DNA of 13,404 nucleotides from a virus: the UHGV virus genome UHGV-0358253; one strand, given 5' to 3'. Both the position numbers and the translations under genes were made by a program. Under the pieces are notes generated by a model, which searched no databases, was not told the DNA's origin, and saw only the letters and a program-made list of their open reading frames with translations. Each line of letters opens with the position of its first letter. The first letter of the stretch is position 1. Shown here piece after piece: positions 2,616 through 13,196 of this stretch.

Positions 2616-2780
2616 TCACTCAACATCAATAACGGGGAGCTGTTTCGCATAAAACGGCTCCGAAACATCCAAGAACAGTTCTAAAGATATCAGCAGCTAT
2701 ATGATCATTTCAAGACCAAATATTGATTCTGCAATTTCGGGACGTTACACTGTCTCCGCACCTTATAAAGCGGGTGCCGG

Positions 2781-2986
2781 GATTGGCGTCCTGAAATTCG
2801 CACATGCGCATAACCGCGCTTCAGCGGTTTTTTTGCGCACGTTTCCTCACATCCAAATTATGGTGGGGCGTGCAGGGGCATCGAAAGATGCGCCGGGGTC
2901 ATGTGCGACCGGTTACGCCAACCCTGTACGTCTCACCACCTCTGTGATTGGCGTCCCATGTGGTGAGTTTTCAAAATTCGCACATG
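2781..2986 (+). repeat. Direct repeat GATTGGCGTCC...AAATTCGCACATG in two copies (2781-2806 and 2946-2986), the second with a 17-bp insertion
   Basis: Copy 1 gattggcgtcctgaaattcgcacatg; copy 2 gattggcgtcc-catgtggtgagttttc-aaattcgcacatg, ending 12 nt before the Rha start codon. Confidence 0.6.
2812..2834 (+). terminator. Rho-independent terminator between the two Rha-like genes
   Basis: AACCGC-gcttca-GCGGTT stem-loop followed by a T7 run. Confidence 0.5.
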
Positions 2987-2997
2987 AGGATGTCACT

Positions 2998-3549
2998 ATG
3001 GCAACCACCCCTACCCAAACTCACCCTAAAATTGATGTTATCCATGGGAAGGCTGTTACCTCTTCTTTGGCCGTTGCCGAATATTTCTGCAAGCAGCACA
3101 AAAACGTTATTCAAAAAATCCAGACGCTTGAGTGCTCTGTTGAATTCACTGAGCTGAATTTTCAGCCCAGTGATTACACCGATTGCACAGGCCGCAAACT
3201 ACCTTGCTATCAAATCACCCGCGATGGCTTCGCGTTCCTTGCTATGGGCTTTACTGGCAAACGTGCAGCCCGGTTCAAAGAGGAATACATCAACGCCTTT
3301 AACCAGATGGAGAAGAATTTATCTGGTGCTGACGCGGTTGATATGTCAGCTGTCGCACGAAACGCCAGAGGCGTATACCTGCATTTGCGTGAAATCCATC
3401 AAATCTGGACAAGCCAGCTTTATCCAATGCTTAAGGCCGTTGAATCTCCGCTGGCTAGCAAACTGTACGACCGTGTTGGTGATGCTGTTTTTGGCGCTGC
3501 ACTTGTTGATTCCAGGCTGAATGGTTCTGACAAGGAGGTTCGCCCATGA
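2998..3549 (+). CDS. rha: Phage regulatory protein Rha family
   Basis: AVTSSLAVAEYFCKQHKNVIQKIQTL...ELNFQPSDY...YQITRDGFAFLAMGFTGKRAARFKEEYINAFNQME matches the conserved Rha core; start moved to ATG 2998 (GAGGA SD) because the upstream 2701 extension has no RBS and contains the terminator at 2812-2834. Confidence 0.85.
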   Translation: MATTPTQTHPKIDVIHGKAVTSSLAVAEYFCKQHKNVIQKIQTLECSVEFTELNFQPSDYTDCTGRKLPCYQITRDGFAFLAMGFTGKRAARFKEEYINAFNQMEKNLSGADAVDMSAVARNARGVYLHLREIHQIWTSQLYPMLKAVESPLASKLYDRVGDAVFGAALVDSRLNGSDKEVRP

Positions 3550-7853: not shown

Positions 7854-8849
7854 GTGACCGTGAGAGCACTGCTGACCCCTGAAATTGCCCCGCGTATGGG
7901 GATCGTCTTGTTCAGACCCGGTTCAGAGCTGATGCCCCTGTTTATGCAGGGGCGTGTCCTGCTGGAGCCTGAGCCGGAACGTTATTCATCTTTTGCCAGT
8001 GGTGCCGTTCCGGCAGCATCACAACCGCTGGCGGATGATCCTGCCGTTCGGGCCGTGTTCCGCCATGAGGCGGTGATCCGTCGTGCTGGTGGCGTGGAAT
8101 GCCTTGAGAGCTGGTTACTTCGTGAAAAAGGCTGCCAGTGGCCTCATTCCGGATGGCACAGCGAGAACATGACCACAATGCGACACGCGCCGGGCGCAAT
8201 CCGTCTGTGTTGGCACTGCGATAACCAGTTGCGTGATCAGTTCACGGAACGGCTGGAATCAATGGCAACGGATAACTGTGCCCACTGGGTGTTATCTGTC
8301 GTGCGTCGGGATCTCGGTTTTGATGACAGTCACGTAGTGACAATGCCGGAACTGTGCTGGTGGCTGGTTCGTAATGACCTGGCGGATGCCTTACCGGAAA
8401 GTGCAGCCCGTAAGGCACTGAGATTACCGAAGCCGGTTGTGCCGTCTGTCACCCGGGAGAGTGACCTTGTTCCTTCGGTTCCTGCCACCAGCATTATCCA
8501 GGATAAAGCGAAAAAGGTGCTGGCGCTGAAAGTGGATCCAGAGTCGCCGGAGTCTTTTATGTTACGCCCAAAACGTCGCCGCTGGGTTAATGAAAAGTAC
8601 ACGCGCTGGGTTAAGACACAGCCGTGTGCATGTTGTGGAAAGCCTGCTGATGATCCCCACCACCTGATAGGCCATGGTCAGGGTGGAATGGGTACAAAAG
8701 CGCATGACCTCTTTGTGTTGCCTTTGTGCAGAAAGCATCACGACGAGCTGCATGCGGATACCGTGGCATTTGAAGAGATGTATGGCTCCCAGCTGGAGCT
8801 GATATTTCGTTTTATCGATCATGCGCTGGCAATAGGCGTACTGGCGTAA
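7854..8849 (+). CDS. Nin-region phage protein, YdfU/DUF968-like, with C-terminal CxxC...HH (HNH-like) motif
   Basis: 331-aa ORF directly upstream of the Q-like gene; C-terminus QPCACCGKPADDPHHLIGHG...LCRKHHDELH; start codon uncertain (GTG 7854 with weak RBS). Family name is from memory. Confidence 0.7.
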   Translation: MTVRALLTPEIAPRMGIVLFRPGSELMPLFMQGRVLLEPEPERYSSFASGAVPAASQPLADDPAVRAVFRHEAVIRRAGGVECLESWLLREKGCQWPHSGWHSENMTTMRHAPGAIRLCWHCDNQLRDQFTERLESMATDNCAHWVLSVVRRDLGFDDSHVVTMPELCWWLVRNDLADALPESAARKALRLPKPVVPSVTRESDLVPSVPATSIIQDKAKKVLALKVDPESPESFMLRPKRRRWVNEKYTRWVKTQPCACCGKPADDPHHLIGHGQGGMGTKAHDLFVLPLCRKHHDELHADTVAFEEMYGSQLELIFRFIDHALAIGVLA

Positions 8850-8862
8850 GTGGAGAACGAGC

Positions 8863-9615
8863 ATGAACCTTGAAGCCTTACCAAAATATTACTCCCCAAA
8901 ATCTCCAAAATTGAGCGATGACGCACCGGCGACAGGCTCAGGTGGTTTAACGATTACGGATGTGATGGCTGCGCAGGGGATGGTGCAGTCGAAAGCACCG
9001 CTTGGGTTTGCCTTATTCCTGGCAAAAGTTGGTGTTCAGGATCCTCAGTTTGCGATTGAAGGTCTGCTCAATTACGCGATGGCAATGGATAACCCGACAT
9101 TGAACAAATTGAGTGAAGAAACCCGGTTACAGATCATCCCTTACCTTGTGAGTTTTGCCTTTGCTGATTATTCCAGGTCTGCGGCAAGTAAGGCTCGCTG
9201 TGAGCATTGTGCTGGTACTGGATTTCATAGTGTATTGCGCGAAGTGGTGAAACACTCCAGAAGCGGGGAATCTGTTATCAAGGAAGAGTGGGTGAAGGAA
9301 TTATGTCAGCATTGCCATGGTAAGGGAGAAGTCAGCACGGCTTGCAGAGGGTGTAAGGGTAAAGGCATTGTCCTGGATGAAAAAAGAACCCGGCTTCATG
9401 GCGCGCCTGTTTATAAGATTTGTGGGCGTTGCAATGGAAACCGGTTTAGTCGTTTACCGACCACACTGGCACGACGTCATGTCCAGAAGCTGGTACCAGA
9501 CCTGACTGATTATCAGTGGTACAAAGGATATGCAGACGTCATTGATAAACTGGTAACAAAGTGCTGGCAGGAAGAAGCATTCGCTGAAGCACAATTGAGA
9601 AAGGTGACGAGATAA
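8863..9615 (+). CDS. Q: Late-gene antiterminator Q (Q82/QuuQ-type) with four CxxCxGxG-like zinc-finger repeats
   Basis: 250-aa ORF with GGAG SD; sits between the nin-like gene and a promoter/terminator pair ahead of the lysis region; CEHCAGTG, CQHCHGKG, CRGCKGKG, CGRCNGNR repeats. Confidence 0.7.
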   Translation: MNLEALPKYYSPKSPKLSDDAPATGSGGLTITDVMAAQGMVQSKAPLGFALFLAKVGVQDPQFAIEGLLNYAMAMDNPTLNKLSEETRLQIIPYLVSFAFADYSRSAASKARCEHCAGTGFHSVLREVVKHSRSGESVIKEEWVKELCQHCHGKGEVSTACRGCKGKGIVLDEKRTRLHGAPVYKICGRCNGNRFSRLPTTLARRHVQKLVPDLTDYQWYKGYADVIDKLVTKCWQEEAFAEAQLRKVTR

Positions 9616-9646
9616 GTGATTTTCACCGAAGATGGCGACATGATGC

Positions 9647-9687
9647 TTGCATTTCTCAAAAAATATGGATAAGATTTTCCCAACGAT
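9647..9687 (+). promoter_or_regulatory. Candidate late promoter pR' with a downstream -10-like pause element
   Basis: TTGCAT (9647-9652), 17-nt spacer, TAAGAT (9670-9675), then AACGAT at 9682-9687 at roughly +1 to +6, the arrangement used for sigma70-dependent promoter-proximal pausing at lambdoid pR'. Confidence 0.4.
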
Positions 9688-9720
9688 GGGCTTTGTATGT
9701 CTACCGTTGATGAGTTCAAG

Positions 9721-9755
9721 AACCCGCCGCCGAGCGGGTTAAATTATTTTTTCTT
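9721..9755 (+). terminator. Candidate tR'-like intrinsic terminator downstream of Q
   Basis: AACCCGC-cgccga-GCGGGTT stem-loop followed by AAATTATTTTTTCTT. Confidence 0.5.
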
Positions 9756-9769
9756 ACACGGGGATATGG

Positions 9770-10300
9770 ATGTTATACCGAGATCTTTTGCCTATTTTCT
9801 CAGAAAGACCCATATTTAAAGCTCCTGAGGCTGAAAGAATACTTCGTGAGCAATATTCTATCGCCGCCCCCACTCCTGTAATTCAGGAGATTTATTATGG
9901 ATTGGCAGGTTATGACAGATTTCAGGAGCTTTATGGGGATCTTAATATTGACCAAATCGAATGGAAATTGATTGAACTTCCCACTAAAAATTTTTTAACT
10001 ATCGGGGATAATGCTACTTACCCTGATTTTTTGCATGAGGTCGTTGAAGATTTCACAACCCGTAAAGGCGATGTATTTATGGATGATGAAATAAAAGCGC
10101 ATTGGTGTAATTTTGGCACATGGTGTGAACCTCCATTTTTTATAGATCGAGCTTTGCTGAAAAGTAATACAACAGGGCTTCATTTAATGGAAGGGCATAC
10201 AAGAGTTGGAACCCTGTTAGGGGCAGTTAAGTATAACTTCGTTAAGCTTGCTAATACTCATAAAATTTATTATGCGCAAGCAAAAGAATGTATTAAATAA
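9770..10300 (+). CDS. Hypothetical 176-aa protein in a low-GC moron; function unknown
   Basis: Clean ORF with GGGGA SD 5 nt upstream; by eye about 37-40 percent GC against about 50 percent in flanking phage genes; contains YPD-x20-EIK and GHTRVG segments; followed by a strong terminator. Confidence 0.75.
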   Translation: MLYRDLLPIFSERPIFKAPEAERILREQYSIAAPTPVIQEIYYGLAGYDRFQELYGDLNIDQIEWKLIELPTKNFLTIGDNATYPDFLHEVVEDFTTRKGDVFMDDEIKAHWCNFGTWCEPPFFIDRALLKSNTTGLHLMEGHTRVGTLLGAVKYNFVKLANTHKIYYAQAKECIK

Positions 10301-10337
10301 GTTGAGTGAAATTACTGTTTTTTTTTAACAATACTTA

Positions 10338-10358
10338 CCGCGTTCTCGCGGTTTTTTT
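10338..10358 (+). terminator. Rho-independent terminator after the low-GC moron gene
   Basis: CCGCG-ttct-CGCGG stem-loop followed by T7; an additional T9 run lies at 10318-10326. Confidence 0.7.
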
Positions 10359-10481
10359 ATAAATTAAACATTGGTGCAGTACGGTAAACACGCTGGTGGT
10401 CGTGAATACTGACTTTTTATCTTGCTGGCTTTTTAGACAAGAGTTATTGGTATGTCATGTTAACCATGAAGGTAAAAAGAC

Positions 10482-10676
10482 ATGCTAAAACAGCAAGATA
10501 TGACAGAAACGGCGAAAGTTGTTTTTAATGAATTAAACGGCAAACCGGCAACAGTCGGGGAGATAGCACAAAACACATACCTTTCACGCGAACGCTGTCA
10601 GTTAATACTGACCCAGCTGGTTATGGCGGGGCTGGCAGATTACCAGTTCGGCTGTTACAGACGCCTTCAGCAATGA
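10482..10676 (+). CDS. Small (64 aa) putative winged-helix DNA-binding protein, possibly PapI/FaeA-like
   Basis: AAGG SD 9 nt upstream; GKPATVGEIAQNTYLSRERCQLILTQLVMAGLADY resembles the recognition-helix region of small winged-helix regulators; similarity is weak and from memory. Confidence 0.5.
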   Translation: MLKQQDMTETAKVVFNELNGKPATVGEIAQNTYLSRERCQLILTQLVMAGLADYQFGCYRRLQQ

Positions 10677-10825
10677 AGGGCTTTTAATTTGTGAAAATGG
10701 GCGGCTGGTGGGTGTTGGTAGCACCTGCCAGCCATTCGCTCATGCTTACTGGTCACAAGCGAACCATGGCCCACTGCTTTAGCGCAAAAGCAGAGTGAGC
10801 CTACCAGAGTTACGCTTACTGATCC

Positions 10826-11851
10826 ATGAAAAACACTGTAAAAATAAACAGTATTGATTTAATCAACGCTGATTGCCTGCATTTTATTCAGTCCCTGCCT
10901 GATGATTCCATTGACCTGATTGTTACCGATCCGCCTTACTTCAAGGTGAAACCCAACGGTTGGGACAATCAGTGGAAAGGGGACGAAGATTACCTTAAGT
11001 GGCTGGACCACTGTCTGGCCCAGTTCTGGCGGGTGTTGAAACCTGCCGGAAGCCTTTACCTGTTCTGTGGGCATCGCCTGGCATCTGATATTGAGATCAT
11101 GATGCGTGAACGTTTCAACGTGCTTAACCATATCATCTGGGCGAAGCCGTCCGGACGTTGGAATGGGTGTAATAAAGAAAGTCTGCGCGCATATTTTCCT
11201 GCCACAGAGCGCGTTCTGTTTGCTGAACATTACCGGGGGCCATATCGCGGCAAAAGTGACGGCTATGTGGCAAAAGAAAGGGAACTCAAACAGCACATAA
11301 TGGCACCGCTGATATCGTATTTCAGGGATGCTCGTGCCGAACTGGGTATAACGGCAAAACAAATTGCCGAAGCCACAGGTAAGAAAAATATGGTTTCCCA
11401 CTGGTTTGGTGCCAGTCAGTGGCAGTTGCCGAATGAGGCTGACTACCGGAAGTTACAGGCACTGTTTTCCCGTATAGCGGCAGAGAAGTTTCAGGAACAA
11501 CAACTGGAACAACCACACCACCAGTTGGTGGCATCTTATGATTCACTGAATCGCAAATATTCTGAATTGCTGGATGAGTTTAAATCTCTCCGGCGCTATT
11601 TCTCCGTATCAGTCTCCGTGCCTTATACCGATGTCTGGATGCATAAACCCGTTCAGTTCTACCCGGGTAAACATCCGTGTGAGAAACCGGCGGATATGCT
11701 CAGGCAAATAATCAATGCCAGTAGTCGACCCGGCGATCTGGTTGCTGATTTCTTTATGGGATCCGGTTCCACAATAAAAGCAGCAATGGCGCTGGGGCGT
11801 CGGGCGTTAGGTGTTGAGCTTGAGACAGAGCGGTTTAATCAGACCATCTAG
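10826..11851 (+). CDS. Beta-class (N6-adenine or N4-cytosine) DNA methyltransferase, apparently orphan
   Basis: Motif IV DLIVTDPPY near the N-terminus and motif I DFFMGSGST near the C-terminus (order IV then I defines the beta class); about 200-aa intervening region with an HTH-like segment ELGITAKQIAEATG; no SD before the ATG. Confidence 0.9.
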   Translation: MKNTVKINSIDLINADCLHFIQSLPDDSIDLIVTDPPYFKVKPNGWDNQWKGDEDYLKWLDHCLAQFWRVLKPAGSLYLFCGHRLASDIEIMMRERFNVLNHIIWAKPSGRWNGCNKESLRAYFPATERVLFAEHYRGPYRGKSDGYVAKERELKQHIMAPLISYFRDARAELGITAKQIAEATGKKNMVSHWFGASQWQLPNEADYRKLQALFSRIAAEKFQEQQLEQPHHQLVASYDSLNRKYSELLDEFKSLRRYFSVSVSVPYTDVWMHKPVQFYPGKHPCEKPADMLRQIINASSRPGDLVADFFMGSGSTIKAAMALGRRALGVELETERFNQTI

Positions 11852-11897
11852 GAAATCAGTATGTTATCAGCAAATACAATTTTGTGAATTAATTCAA

Positions 11898-11926
11898 TTA
11901 TTGGTGGGATGTCTGTGCCGTATAAT
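11898..11926 (+). promoter_or_regulatory. Candidate promoter with a perfect -10 (TATAAT) and weak -35
   Basis: TATAAT at 11921-11926; best -35 is TTATTG at 11898-11903 with 17-nt spacer; a transcript from here would end at the terminator at 12129-12168. Confidence 0.25.
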
Positions 11927-12128
11927 GATTACAGATACAGTGTATCCTGCAATGCAGCAGGGCTGATGTGGTGGGTTGTACATAGCCTGCAAAGGATTGG
12001 CTTCATTAATTCATCGTTGATACAAGCGAGTCACGGTTGACCACGCCAACGGCTCATCGGTAAAAATCCGACACCGTGTCTTCTTAACTCACTTATTGTT
12101 TCCACCCATGTTTTTGGATACCTGCTGT

Positions 12129-12168
12129 AGCTGTCAGATTAGCGCGATAATCTGACAGCTTTTTTTTT
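12129..12168 (+). terminator. Strong Rho-independent terminator
   Basis: 13-bp perfect stem AGCTGTCAGATTA / TAATCTGACAGCT, loop GCGCGA, then T8. Confidence 0.8.
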
Positions 12169-12457
12169 ACAACGAATCCTTCTGATCTGCTTTTGCGGGG
12201 CTTTTTTGTATCCGCTCCATGCCCGGCGTATAAGCGGAGGTTGGTCAGTTTTCTAAAAATTGAAATACCTCACAATTCAGCCAGTTAATGGTTGTTTGTC
12301 TGGCGAAGAGTTTGTAAATAAAAAAACGCATGGTGAATCCCCCTAAGCGGCGGGGCGAATCAGCAGTCAGTTCTGGGATAATCGCGGGTTCGTATGCTGA
12401 TGCCGGACTCACCGGGAGGCACCCGGCACCATGCATCATGGTCATCCCCTTGTATGA

Positions 12458-12483
12458 TACCCCTCTCCGGAGGGGTATTTTTT
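12458..12483 (+). terminator. Strong Rho-independent terminator
   Basis: TACCCCTC-tccg-GAGGGGTA stem-loop followed by T6; a weaker GCCCG...CGGGC hairpin preceded by A6 at 12488-12515 could terminate the opposite strand. Confidence 0.75.
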
Positions 12484-12916
12484 GGATAAAAAAGCCCGCG
12501 CTGGGAGGCACGGGCGGCAAGGAATAAAACGTGAAGAAATTTTCACAGGCGCATAATAATCCGATGTTGCCAGATTTTGCAACTGCATCATCTGGTTATT
12601 ATGTGAGCTGGAAAATCAGATTCTGTATGGACTGAAGCCATGCTGTTATTTAGGGCCAAAGAGCTGGCTTTTTCCCGCCTTCTCTCCAGTAACGATTAAT
12701 GAGAAAAGAATGAAATGCTTTTCCTGGGGAGGAGGGCAGTAGAAAAAAGAACCCGCCAGCAAAAATATGGGGGATGAACAGCTTTTGCTACTCAGGTTGC
12801 TGGCGGGTATGGTTCTTCATGAAATAAGAATGTTACGCGGTATTTTTAATGAAAATGATAATTATTGTCAATTGGTTGTGCGTATTTTTTCATACATGAC
12901 TGGTAAAGGTGATTCA

Positions 12917-12947
12917 GGCCATCAGAGTTTTGCTGATGGCCTTTTTT
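12917..12947 (+). terminator. Rho-independent terminator about 35 nt upstream of the holin start
   Basis: GGCCATCAG-agttttg-CTGATGGCC stem-loop followed by TTTTTTCTTTCC. Confidence 0.7.
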
Positions 12948-12980
12948 CTTTCCGGTAGCACAGGTCTGTTGGGGCGGGAT

Positions 12981-13196
12981 ATGTATCAGATGGAAAAAAT
13001 ATCAACAGGCATTGCCTACGGCACCTCCGCAGGCAGTGCTGGCTACTGGTTTTTACAATGGCTTGATCAGGTTAGTCCGTCTCAGTGGGCTGCGATTGGT
13101 GTACTGGGAAGTCTGGTTCTGGGCTTTCTGACTTATCTGACGAATCTGTACTTCAAAATCAGAGAAGACAGAAGAAAGGCTGCGAGAGGAGAGTAA
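12981..13196 (+). CDS. Phage holin, S21/EssQ-type class II (pinholin-like), dual-start
   Basis: 71-aa product [28 protein letters not shown]...[36 protein letters not shown]: two hydrophobic segments, charged C-terminus, two in-frame ATGs three codons apart (12981, 12990); the ORF-track N-terminal extension from 12909 crosses the terminator and is rejected. Confidence 0.85.

Follow-up and report, generated by a model that had tools for sequence, protein, structure and literature searches.

A small winged-helix gene and a conserved folded leader RNA ahead of an M.EcoGII-family adenine methylase in a lambdoid Escherichia coli prophage

What keeps a gene for a small winged-helix protein and a gene for a DNA methyltransferase side by side in a temperate phage? 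The question is posed by UHGV virus genome UHGV-0358253, a stretch of 13,404 nucleotides (nt) which was analysed as a whole (the window) and which in its entirety is a lambdoid E. coli prophage, 100% identical to the chromosome of strain N32. A preliminary description had placed a winged-helix-like protein of 64 amino acids (aa) at 10482-10676 and an orphan methyltransferase with a DPPY motif at 10826-11851, where both open reading frames (ORFs) are indeed found, and had proposed that together they form a methylation-sensitive epigenetic module of the PapI/Dam kind. On balance, and only just, we consider another answer the probable one, namely a three-part mobile cassette of temperate phages, in which a regulated, late anti-restriction methylase is furnished with a folded leader and a winged-helix regulator. 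The most unusual feature of the interval is the RNA of the spacer between the two ORFs, which the preliminary description had missed. The parts of the cassette are located as follows.

10482..10676, + strand: gene for the 64-aa winged-helix protein (phrog_331), recognised by codon conservation, homologues and AlphaFold2
10689..10825, + strand: conserved structured leader RNA of about 137 nt, recognised by conservation, covariance model R1 and covariation
10698-10702 with 10769-10773, + strand: P0, a five-pair helix (UGGGC/GCCCA) closing a three-way junction
10703-10714 with 10722-10733, + strand: P1, a 12-pair hairpin with a weak centre
10735-10740 with 10758-10763 and 10743-10744 with 10754-10755, + strand: P2, a 6+2-pair hairpin
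10776-10780 with 10787-10791, + strand: P3, a further hairpin after the junction
10794-10800 with 10814-10820, + strand: P4, the last hairpin before the methylase start
10826..11851, + strand: gene for a beta-class N6-adenine DNA methyltransferase of the M.EcoGII family (341 aa), recognised by Pfam, BLASTP, PADLOC and the literature

The leader RNA, the winged-helix protein and the methylase

The spacer between the small ORF and the methylase gene measures 150 nt, is structured and is better conserved than either ORF; its mean pairwise identity of 0.82 equals the level of non-synonymous positions, third codon positions lying at 0.50-0.53. The structure given above was obtained with RNAalifold and refined by hand. 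Covariance model R1 scores 169 bits on the leader of the window and finds exactly one match per locus, always on the sense strand and directly 5' of the methylase or other first ORF, while the folding z-score of the window leader is -4.1 and the presence of G-U pairs assigns the functional RNA to the + strand. The leader ends in UGAUC(C/U)AUG, a GATC (10821-10824) abutting the ATG of the methylase, and an invariant GCUCAUG segment offers the 5' strand of P0 an alternative partner. There is so little sequence variation within Enterobacterales that the covariation there is modest. Across 40 distinct sequences, 31 of the 37 pairs are changed on both sides, compensated cells number 268 as against 77 in shuffles (none of 500 shuffles reaching the observed value) and 86% of the cells are paired as against 31-40% in slid-partner controls, figures which come from alignments fitted to the model and thus favouring the structure, the margin being large nevertheless. 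A cmscan search of Rfam 15 gave no match at E<=1 for the whole window, at E<=10 for the 521-nt region 10340-10860 or at E<=0.1 for four loci of the ParB type described below, and a literature search on the leader sequence found nothing. Two other readings of the spacer were discarded: a 33-codon ORF (MGGWWVL...) runs into a stop codon behind its first 7 codons in the versions of Kluyvera, Salmonella and others, and a pseudoknot between the loops of P2 (CUGGU) and P4 (ACCAG) is, upon inspection, not kept in other lineages.

The small ORF is a real gene, as judged from its mean pairwise identities over diverse loci, which amount to 0.80, 0.84 and 0.53 at codon positions 1, 2 and 3. Its homologues comprise 320 protein clusters in Enterobacterales, and the family is a narrow one, with 63 representative clusters among 1.84 billion proteins; in PHROGs it corresponds to phrog_331, a family of unknown function. 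All Pfam matches of the small ORF stay below threshold, NCBIfam gives none, a PDB sequence search returned noise only, and PADLOC is silent on this protein as well as on the DUF968 protein encoded upstream. Public records name it either 'TrmB family transcriptional regulator' or 'hypothetical'; the former label was rejected, since PF01978, with a cut-off of 25.6 bits, scores no more than 16.6 and aligns with just 36 residues, and the protein is a bare 64-aa winged helix. AlphaFold2, run on a 33-sequence alignment, predicts the order H1-b-H2-H3-beta hairpin of a canonical winged helix (mean pLDDT, the predicted local distance difference test score, 88.6), and the model shows the topology H1-S1-H2-H3-S2-wing-S3 together with close structural matches to solved winged-helix domains. 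The fold assignment of the preliminary description, for which structure prediction had been named as a check, was thereby supported. Its comparison with PapI and FaeA fared otherwise, the resemblance being a generic winged-helix similarity: PF04703 (FaeA/PapI) has no match in the small ORF at E<=1, and hhalign against PapI, with a PapI sequence not taken from a database record, returned a probability of 1.5%. By the same method, N15 gp51 (35%) and PY54 ORF59 (18%), which share an MTE.A motif and the wing, look like distant relatives. The protein contains only two cysteines, and its N-terminus and helix 3 (RCQLILTQL) are retained even between alleles 50% identical. A second allele of this kind, only about 50% identical, is present in mEp460 and cdtI and is paired there with a 99%-identical methylase.

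By its sequence, the enzyme itself is of an already known type, a predicted non-specific adenine methylase of the M.EcoGII family. The 341-aa ORF matches Pfam N6_N4_Mtase (E=6e-42) and has the motifs in beta-class order, motif IV (DPPY, aa 35-38, nt 10928-10939) preceding motif I (FMGSG, aa 310-314, nt 11753-11767), with the target-recognition domain at about nt 11303-11536; the solved enzymes closest to it belong to the beta class too, M.RsrI, M.MboIIA and CcrM among them. When the small ORF, the methylase, ORF176 and the DUF968 protein were submitted to PADLOC, the methylase alone was matched. In BLASTP, 278 of 342 residues (81%) are identical to M.EcoGII over the full length, without gaps before residue 274 and so through the target-recognition domain, the reference being taken from Table S1 (SUPREM) of PMC11551740 in an optically recognised copy in which a few residues are possibly wrong. 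The target-recognition domain of M.EcoGII is a four-helix bundle at residues 160-237 which includes a helix-turn-helix (HTH; PMC11551740). A weak HTH_3 match at aa 167-193 of the window enzyme falls within this domain, and what had been described as an HTH-like insertion between motifs IV and I is thus nothing but the ordinary target-recognition domain of the family.

M.EcoGII, like M.EcoGI, comes from prophages of E. coli O104:H4 (Murray et al. 2018, PMC5778455), where it occupies the same genomic place on lambdoid prophages; whatever the sequence context, it methylates adenine; it is silent in the lysogen, growth is slowed by its expression, and the proposal of its authors is that during infection it overcomes restriction (PMC5778455). 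Phage P840 needs its related methylase neither for lysis nor for lysogeny (PMC10612081), which fits an accessory role in anti-restriction. The sequence of M.EcoGII is 96.6% identical to the methylases of two of our loci (L075 and L068), both with the same small ORF and leader upstream, and the characterised enzyme therefore sits in a cassette of the present type; neither the small ORF nor the leader is described in the consulted part of the original publication (PMC5778455), and the literature on the pR' region and on StxS does not mention the methylase. Of 5426 complete E. coli genomes, 2372 (about 44%) contain relatives of M.EcoGII.

Some irregularities of the methylase genes should also be noted. 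In the region 11844-11866 of the window, the stop codon TAG comes 8-9 codons early, similarity continuing beyond it (QTI*EIS versus QTVREVQ), and DNA similarity to other phages stops at about 11844, which points to a recombination junction or a nonsense change; the variant with the short C-terminus is common, 82 E. coli records being at least 99% identical to the query. The annotated start of gene 52 in phage N15 (position 1735 of locus L146) lies 78 codons 3' of the place where methylase similarity begins (1501), and in Vibrio phage VP58.5 (locus L157, 871-1933) the methylase is split over two annotated ORFs, suggesting a frameshift.

Linkage of the three parts and the leader in other phages

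For the synteny analysis 104 loci were fetched, almost all of them via the small protein. In about 95 of these, methylase and leader follow the small ORF at a distance of about 150 nt, across at least nine genera (Escherichia, Kluyvera, Citrobacter, Salmonella, Buttiauxella, Klebsiella, Enterobacter, Phytobacter and Proteus) and several unrelated types of Q and holin, and the exceptions are contig ends or secondary losses. The pairing pointed out in the preliminary description is consequently genuine and tight, and the methylase also proves to be an orphan as claimed, since no restriction partner is found near it, its neighbours being Q, ORF176, the small RNA STnc100 and the holin. The linkage is one-sided, in that the small protein almost never occurs without leader and methylase; this obligate dependence of a narrow winged-helix family on the cassette is new. 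In Erwinia endophytica the methylase is present and the small ORF and leader were not found. SfV, mEp460, cdtI and the E. coli genome of the window itself all have the cassette between Q and the lysis genes, and homologous methylases are encoded just 5' of the lysis genes in N15, PY54, Morganella phage IME1369_02 and in Vibrio and Aeromonas phages.

Two rearranged versions were seen besides. In loci L044 (1499-3547) and L057 (5254-7242) an ORF of 660-680 aa, which upon inspection we take to be an esterase of the NanS-p type, stands in place of the methylase, while the small ORF and part of the leader persist. In the protein P0042 the small winged-helix ORF runs straight into the final residues of the methylase (..CYRRRATGVELEAERF..), a sign that the DNA between two short, similar stretches, RRL and GRRA, was deleted.

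The leader reaches considerably further than the small protein. R1 finds it 5' of methylase homologues with 49-64% identity in N15, YDC107_1, PY54, P840, Klebsiella phage Kpn74 and Morganella phage IME1369_02, as well as in the Vibrio phages MAR, VP58.5 and Val-yong3 and the Aeromonas phages PhAER-1 and PhAER-5; in these phages the stems are rewritten by compensatory change and the junction nucleotides are unchanged. IMG/VR was then scanned with a pattern derived from these junction nucleotides, and 78 loci among the matches listed were analysed, the loci being confirmed by R1 as full-length matches. In about 37 of the 78, an M.EcoGII-like methylase begins 52-91 nt past the pattern, and in about 30 an ORF with a ParB_N domain takes the place of the methylase, and behind it comes a Mom-family protein (PF25680, E=2e-44) or a TET-associated glycosyltransferase (TAGT; PF20691, E=2e-31); some of the ParB_N ORFs are fused to an N6_N4 methylase domain. 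Standing before methylase, ParB_N and Mom, ParB_N and TAGT, and ParB_N-methylase operons, the leader is common to several kinds of phage DNA-modification operon. The methylase homologues of the P2-like phage phiO18P and of an archaeal virus were searched for the motif and it was not found there.

In some of these phages a further small ORF is inserted between motif and methylase. In Aeromonas phage PhAER-1 it encodes a true Com homologue (PF10122, E=1.4e-8), and in Vibrio phage Val-yong3 a similar zinc-ribbon ORF of 38 aa, annotated as 'RNA polymerase subunit P', looks like the Com type. The latter phage also has, upstream of the late promoter (locus L149, 787-1086, + strand), an unannotated ORF with a winged-helix-like C-terminal half (..HVAFVMEQLTIAGQLKQIPDGRYITT..); the gene annotated there in the record is on the other strand.

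A widespread leader RNA which is supported by covariation, uncatalogued in Rfam and common to unrelated phage DNA-modification operons is, as far as we can see, new. An automated catalogue (Fremin et al. 2023, PMC10690425) lists four unnamed RNA candidates from IMG/VR ahead of genes for DNA N6-adenine methyltransferases, and the present motif may overlap with one of them; the text of that paper gives no structure, no distribution and no connection with Mom, TAGT or ParB operons. M.EcoGII is a commercial and much-used tool enzyme, and the way in which phages silence and switch on this toxic activity has not yet been described; the leader RNA and its winged-helix companion offer concrete, testable control elements. 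With the same RNA fold ahead of Mom, glycosyltransferase and other methylase operons, it may represent a general switch for anti-restriction DNA modification in phages, which would matter for the arms race between phages and hosts and for the safe expression of such enzymes, and would help to predict which prophages release hypermodified, restriction-resistant DNA, including Shiga toxin (Stx)-converting phages.

Control of the methylase and competing readings

The signals on which the proposed control depends are the following.

8863-9615: Q, upstream neighbour of the cassette
9647..9675, + strand: candidate late promoter pR' (TTGCAT, 17-nt spacer, TAAGAT) just 3' of Q, read directly from the sequence and at the same position as in SfV and mEp460
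9721..9752, + strand: tR'-like intrinsic terminator from the terminator scan; SfV has an annotated terminator equally far from Q
10337..10359, + strand: second intrinsic terminator from the terminator scan (ACCGCG-TTCT-CGCGGT followed by T7), 3' of ORF176, forming the upstream edge of the mobile cassette
10421..10458, + strand: conserved block CTTGCTG-N14-AGAGTTATTGGTATGTCA 5' of the small ORF, a candidate weak promoter (-35 TTGCTG, -10 TAYNNK) or operator
10664..10690, + strand: hairpin CCTTCA-GCAA-TGAAGG over the stop codon of the small ORF, with a U-rich tract behind it, found in the terminator scan and terminator- or attenuator-like

Similarity to phage cdtI and others starts at about 10348, i.e. 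at the second terminator, and a terminator occupies this place in every related locus. A consensus scan of 9500-13000 found no promoter on the + strand, the candidate pR' included, and the proposed promoters therefore rest on conservation only. The block at 10421..10458 is kept from Escherichia to Proteus, Morganella and Mixta; in the form TTGMTG, about 17 nt, TAYNNK, within ..CAGAGTTAY..TGT.TGTC, it stands 5' of the small gene in lambdoid phages, and the N15-like phages N15, YDC107_1 and Kpn74 have the same block, with TACAGT as its -10, ahead of gene 50. The hairpin at the stop codon is preserved with other sequences in other lineages (e.g. CCTCCA/TGGGGG, GCTGCC/GGCGGT and CTGTCG/CGGCAG), and N15-like, Vibrio and Aeromonas phages have a full terminator at this position, just 5' of the RNA motif. 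With a conserved block upstream and a hairpin at its stop codon, the small gene looks like a separate little transcription unit immediately ahead of the leader.

As the cassette follows Q, pR' and two terminators and precedes the lysis genes, productive transcription of the methylase should require Q-modified RNA polymerase and thus lytic growth. Indiscriminate methylation being toxic, its expression would be held down at several levels, by the terminators, by the lack of a normal ribosome-binding site (the methylase gene has no canonical Shine-Dalgarno sequence) and by the folded leader. We envisage the cassette to consist of the winged-helix gene with its candidate weak promoter upstream and its terminator-like hairpin, of the leader, whose three-way junction and two hairpins reach the start codon, and of a methylase that, to judge from its family, would modify adenines without sequence specificity. 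In the prophage, transcripts from pR' would end at tR' (9721-9752) or, failing that, at 10337-10359 and 10664-10690, and any message that escapes would carry the folded leader without a proper ribosome-binding site. Upon induction, Q-modified polymerase would read through the terminators, the methylase would be made alongside the lysis proteins, and the DNA of the progeny, being heavily methylated, could upon entry into the next host be shielded from many restriction systems. The most likely role of the leader is one in cis, affecting translation or stability of the first ORF of the operon, and the winged-helix protein most likely is a lineage-specific regulator, binding RNA or DNA, which tunes the cassette. 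The logic would resemble that of com-mom in phage Mu.

Several observations weigh against this cassette model. Every mechanistic step in it, from late expression to the cis-regulatory action of the leader and any regulatory part of the winged-helix protein, is one that we infer; what the analysis itself establishes is the identity of the genes, the fold, the synteny and the conservation and covariation of the RNA. The small protein is near-neutral in charge and its conserved helix 3 largely hydrophobic, and its putative distant homologues N15 gp51 and PY54 ORF59 are encoded upstream of the late promoter and terminator, outside the methylase transcript. Among the matches listed in the RNA-first scan, about half of the loci with leader and methylase have no recognisable winged-helix gene just upstream, none of the ParB-type loci has one, and in two loci the motif lies directly 5' of a holin-like ORF without a modification gene; E. 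coli phage 666R9, which has ParB_N and TAGT, lacks the motif. The C-terminus of the window methylase is 8-9 aa shorter than in SfV and M.EcoGII, its activity and non-specificity being predictions, and the fitting of the covariation alignments to the model has been mentioned above.

Unlikely, but the best placed of the alternatives, is a winged-helix protein acting as a DNA-binding transcription factor in the manner of the C proteins, which at the block 5' of its own gene or at the late promoter would set the level or timing of the methylase, the leader being independent of it. C proteins, too, are small nucleic-acid-binding proteins encoded just 5' of a gene of a DNA-modification system. They are however of the Xre-type HTH, bind C-boxes and delay the restriction gene, whereas the small ORF has no HTH_3 match, there is no restriction gene in need of a delay, no clear dyad-symmetric operator resembling a C-box is evident on inspection of the lambdoid block, and DNA binding is putative. 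Of the C-protein-like controller considered in the preliminary description, the notion of a controller of the methyltransferase is retained as the best current guess; the likeness to C proteins is not.

A bolder interpretation of the distribution, which we regard as doubtful, takes the leader of about 137 nt for a new class of cis-regulatory RNA that senses a ligand or a protein ahead of unrelated toxic DNA-modification operons in phages of Enterobacterales, Vibrio and Aeromonas, with the 64-aa protein as its lineage-specific trans-acting partner and as a non-homologous counterpart of Mu Com. 

As regards the likeness to com-mom drawn above for the cassette model, Com activates the translation of Mu mom, and genes like com stand before the alpha-class non-specific methylases Hin1523, Nma1821 and Hia5 (PMC3299994). 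As in com-mom, a small protein gene and a structured mRNA around the start codon stand ahead of a toxic, late-expressed anti-restriction modification gene; moreover, Aeromonas relatives of the cassette carry the true Com homologue (PF10122) and the same leader precedes Mom-family genes in other phages. Com is, on the other hand, a zinc ribbon (CxxC...CxxC) whose gene directly precedes the modification gene and overlaps it, while the 64-aa protein, a winged helix, has just two cysteines and gives no match to PF10122, and its ORF lies upstream of the folded RNA and 150 nt from the methylase; binding of this protein to the leader RNA is putative only.

The leader without the winged-helix gene in many loci implies that the RNA does not need this protein. 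It might then be a self-contained sensor (a riboswitch, or a thermo- or ribosome-sensing element) gating modification genes by a small molecule such as S-adenosylmethionine (SAM) or S-adenosylhomocysteine (SAH) or by the state of the cell, with the winged-helix gene as an unrelated passenger, an explanation that strikes us as rather improbable. That the junction nucleotides are near-invariant in phages of Enterobacterales, Vibrio and Aeromonas, whichever of the unrelated enzymes is encoded downstream, would agree with it, as would the frequency, among the matches listed, of motifs without that gene and the alternative pairing of GCUCAUG with P0. The Rfam scans, however, gave no likeness to a known riboswitch class, Mom and TAGT do not use SAM, so that SAM/SAH is no obvious common ligand, and the Com homologues between motif and gene in some phages suggest a protein-based control instead.

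Less credence still is given to a function of the winged-helix protein apart from methylase expression, be it as an anti-defence factor, as a reader or protector of hypermethylated DNA (e.g. against type IV enzymes dependent on N6-methyladenine, m6A, such as Mrr) or as a modifier of methylase activity. The one-sided linkage, the protein almost never occurring away from the methylase and the methylase often without the protein, fits an accessory that depends on the product of the enzyme, and winged-helix domains of prokaryotes can read m6A, as in the case of the DpnI-type domains treated in PMC11037411. The least probable by far, and largely refuted, is the PapI/Dam-type switch proposed in the preliminary description, in which site-specific methylation and methylation-sensitive DNA binding would set heritable on/off states of phage or host promoters: a winged helix of about PapI size alongside adenine methylation, an orphan methylase and the invariant GATC adjoining its start codon recall PapI/FaeA with Lrp and Dam in pap phase variation, but similarity at the family level is lacking, there are no paired GATC/Lrp sites in a fimbrial-type promoter, the cassette lies in a late lytic operon behind terminators, and the enzyme belongs to the M.EcoGII family, which is silent in lysogens (PMC5778455) and methylates in any context, so that no site-specific heritable mark is possible.

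Neighbouring genes and minor observations

The gene order of the window is RusA, KilA-N, DUF968, Q, ORF176, the 64-aa ORF, the methyltransferase, about 1 kb of mostly non-coding DNA, the holin, the lysis genes and iss. ORF176 (9770-10300, + strand; phrog_8867) is inserted between tR' and the second terminator, in what looks like a moron slot; it has no match in Pfam, NCBIfam or PADLOC, and is absent from SfV; mEp460 has an annotated ORF of 417 nt in that place. The stretch of about 1 kb between methylase and holin has no convincing ORF, though RefSeq annotates two short hypothetical proteins there, and contains a full-length match to the Rfam small RNA STnc100 (12299-12487, + strand; 114.5 bits against a gathering score of 47). 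Just 5' of Q, the DUF968 protein (7854-8849, + strand) shows a weak HNH-nuclease signature; it is found likewise in the cassette-bearing loci of Mixta, Pantoea and Atlantibacter, which may be ordinary synteny of the nin region.

In the N15-like phages, perfect palindromes of 14-18 base pairs lie between the winged-helix-like gene and the late promoter (at about 1236-1262 of locus L146 and at equivalent places of L147 and L153). They read GTGCGACCATGGTCGCAC in N15, GGGACCATGGTCCC in PY54 and GCGACCGCGGTCGC in Kpn74, and could be operators or terminators without a U-tract. Finally, at 2745-2943 (+ strand) of the window, upstream of and inside the ORF 2701-3549, Rfam matches to the C4 antisense RNA (75 bits), isrK (62 bits) and the c4 a1/b1 target were obtained, which look like a C4-ant immunity module of the P1/P7 type within this lambdoid prophage.

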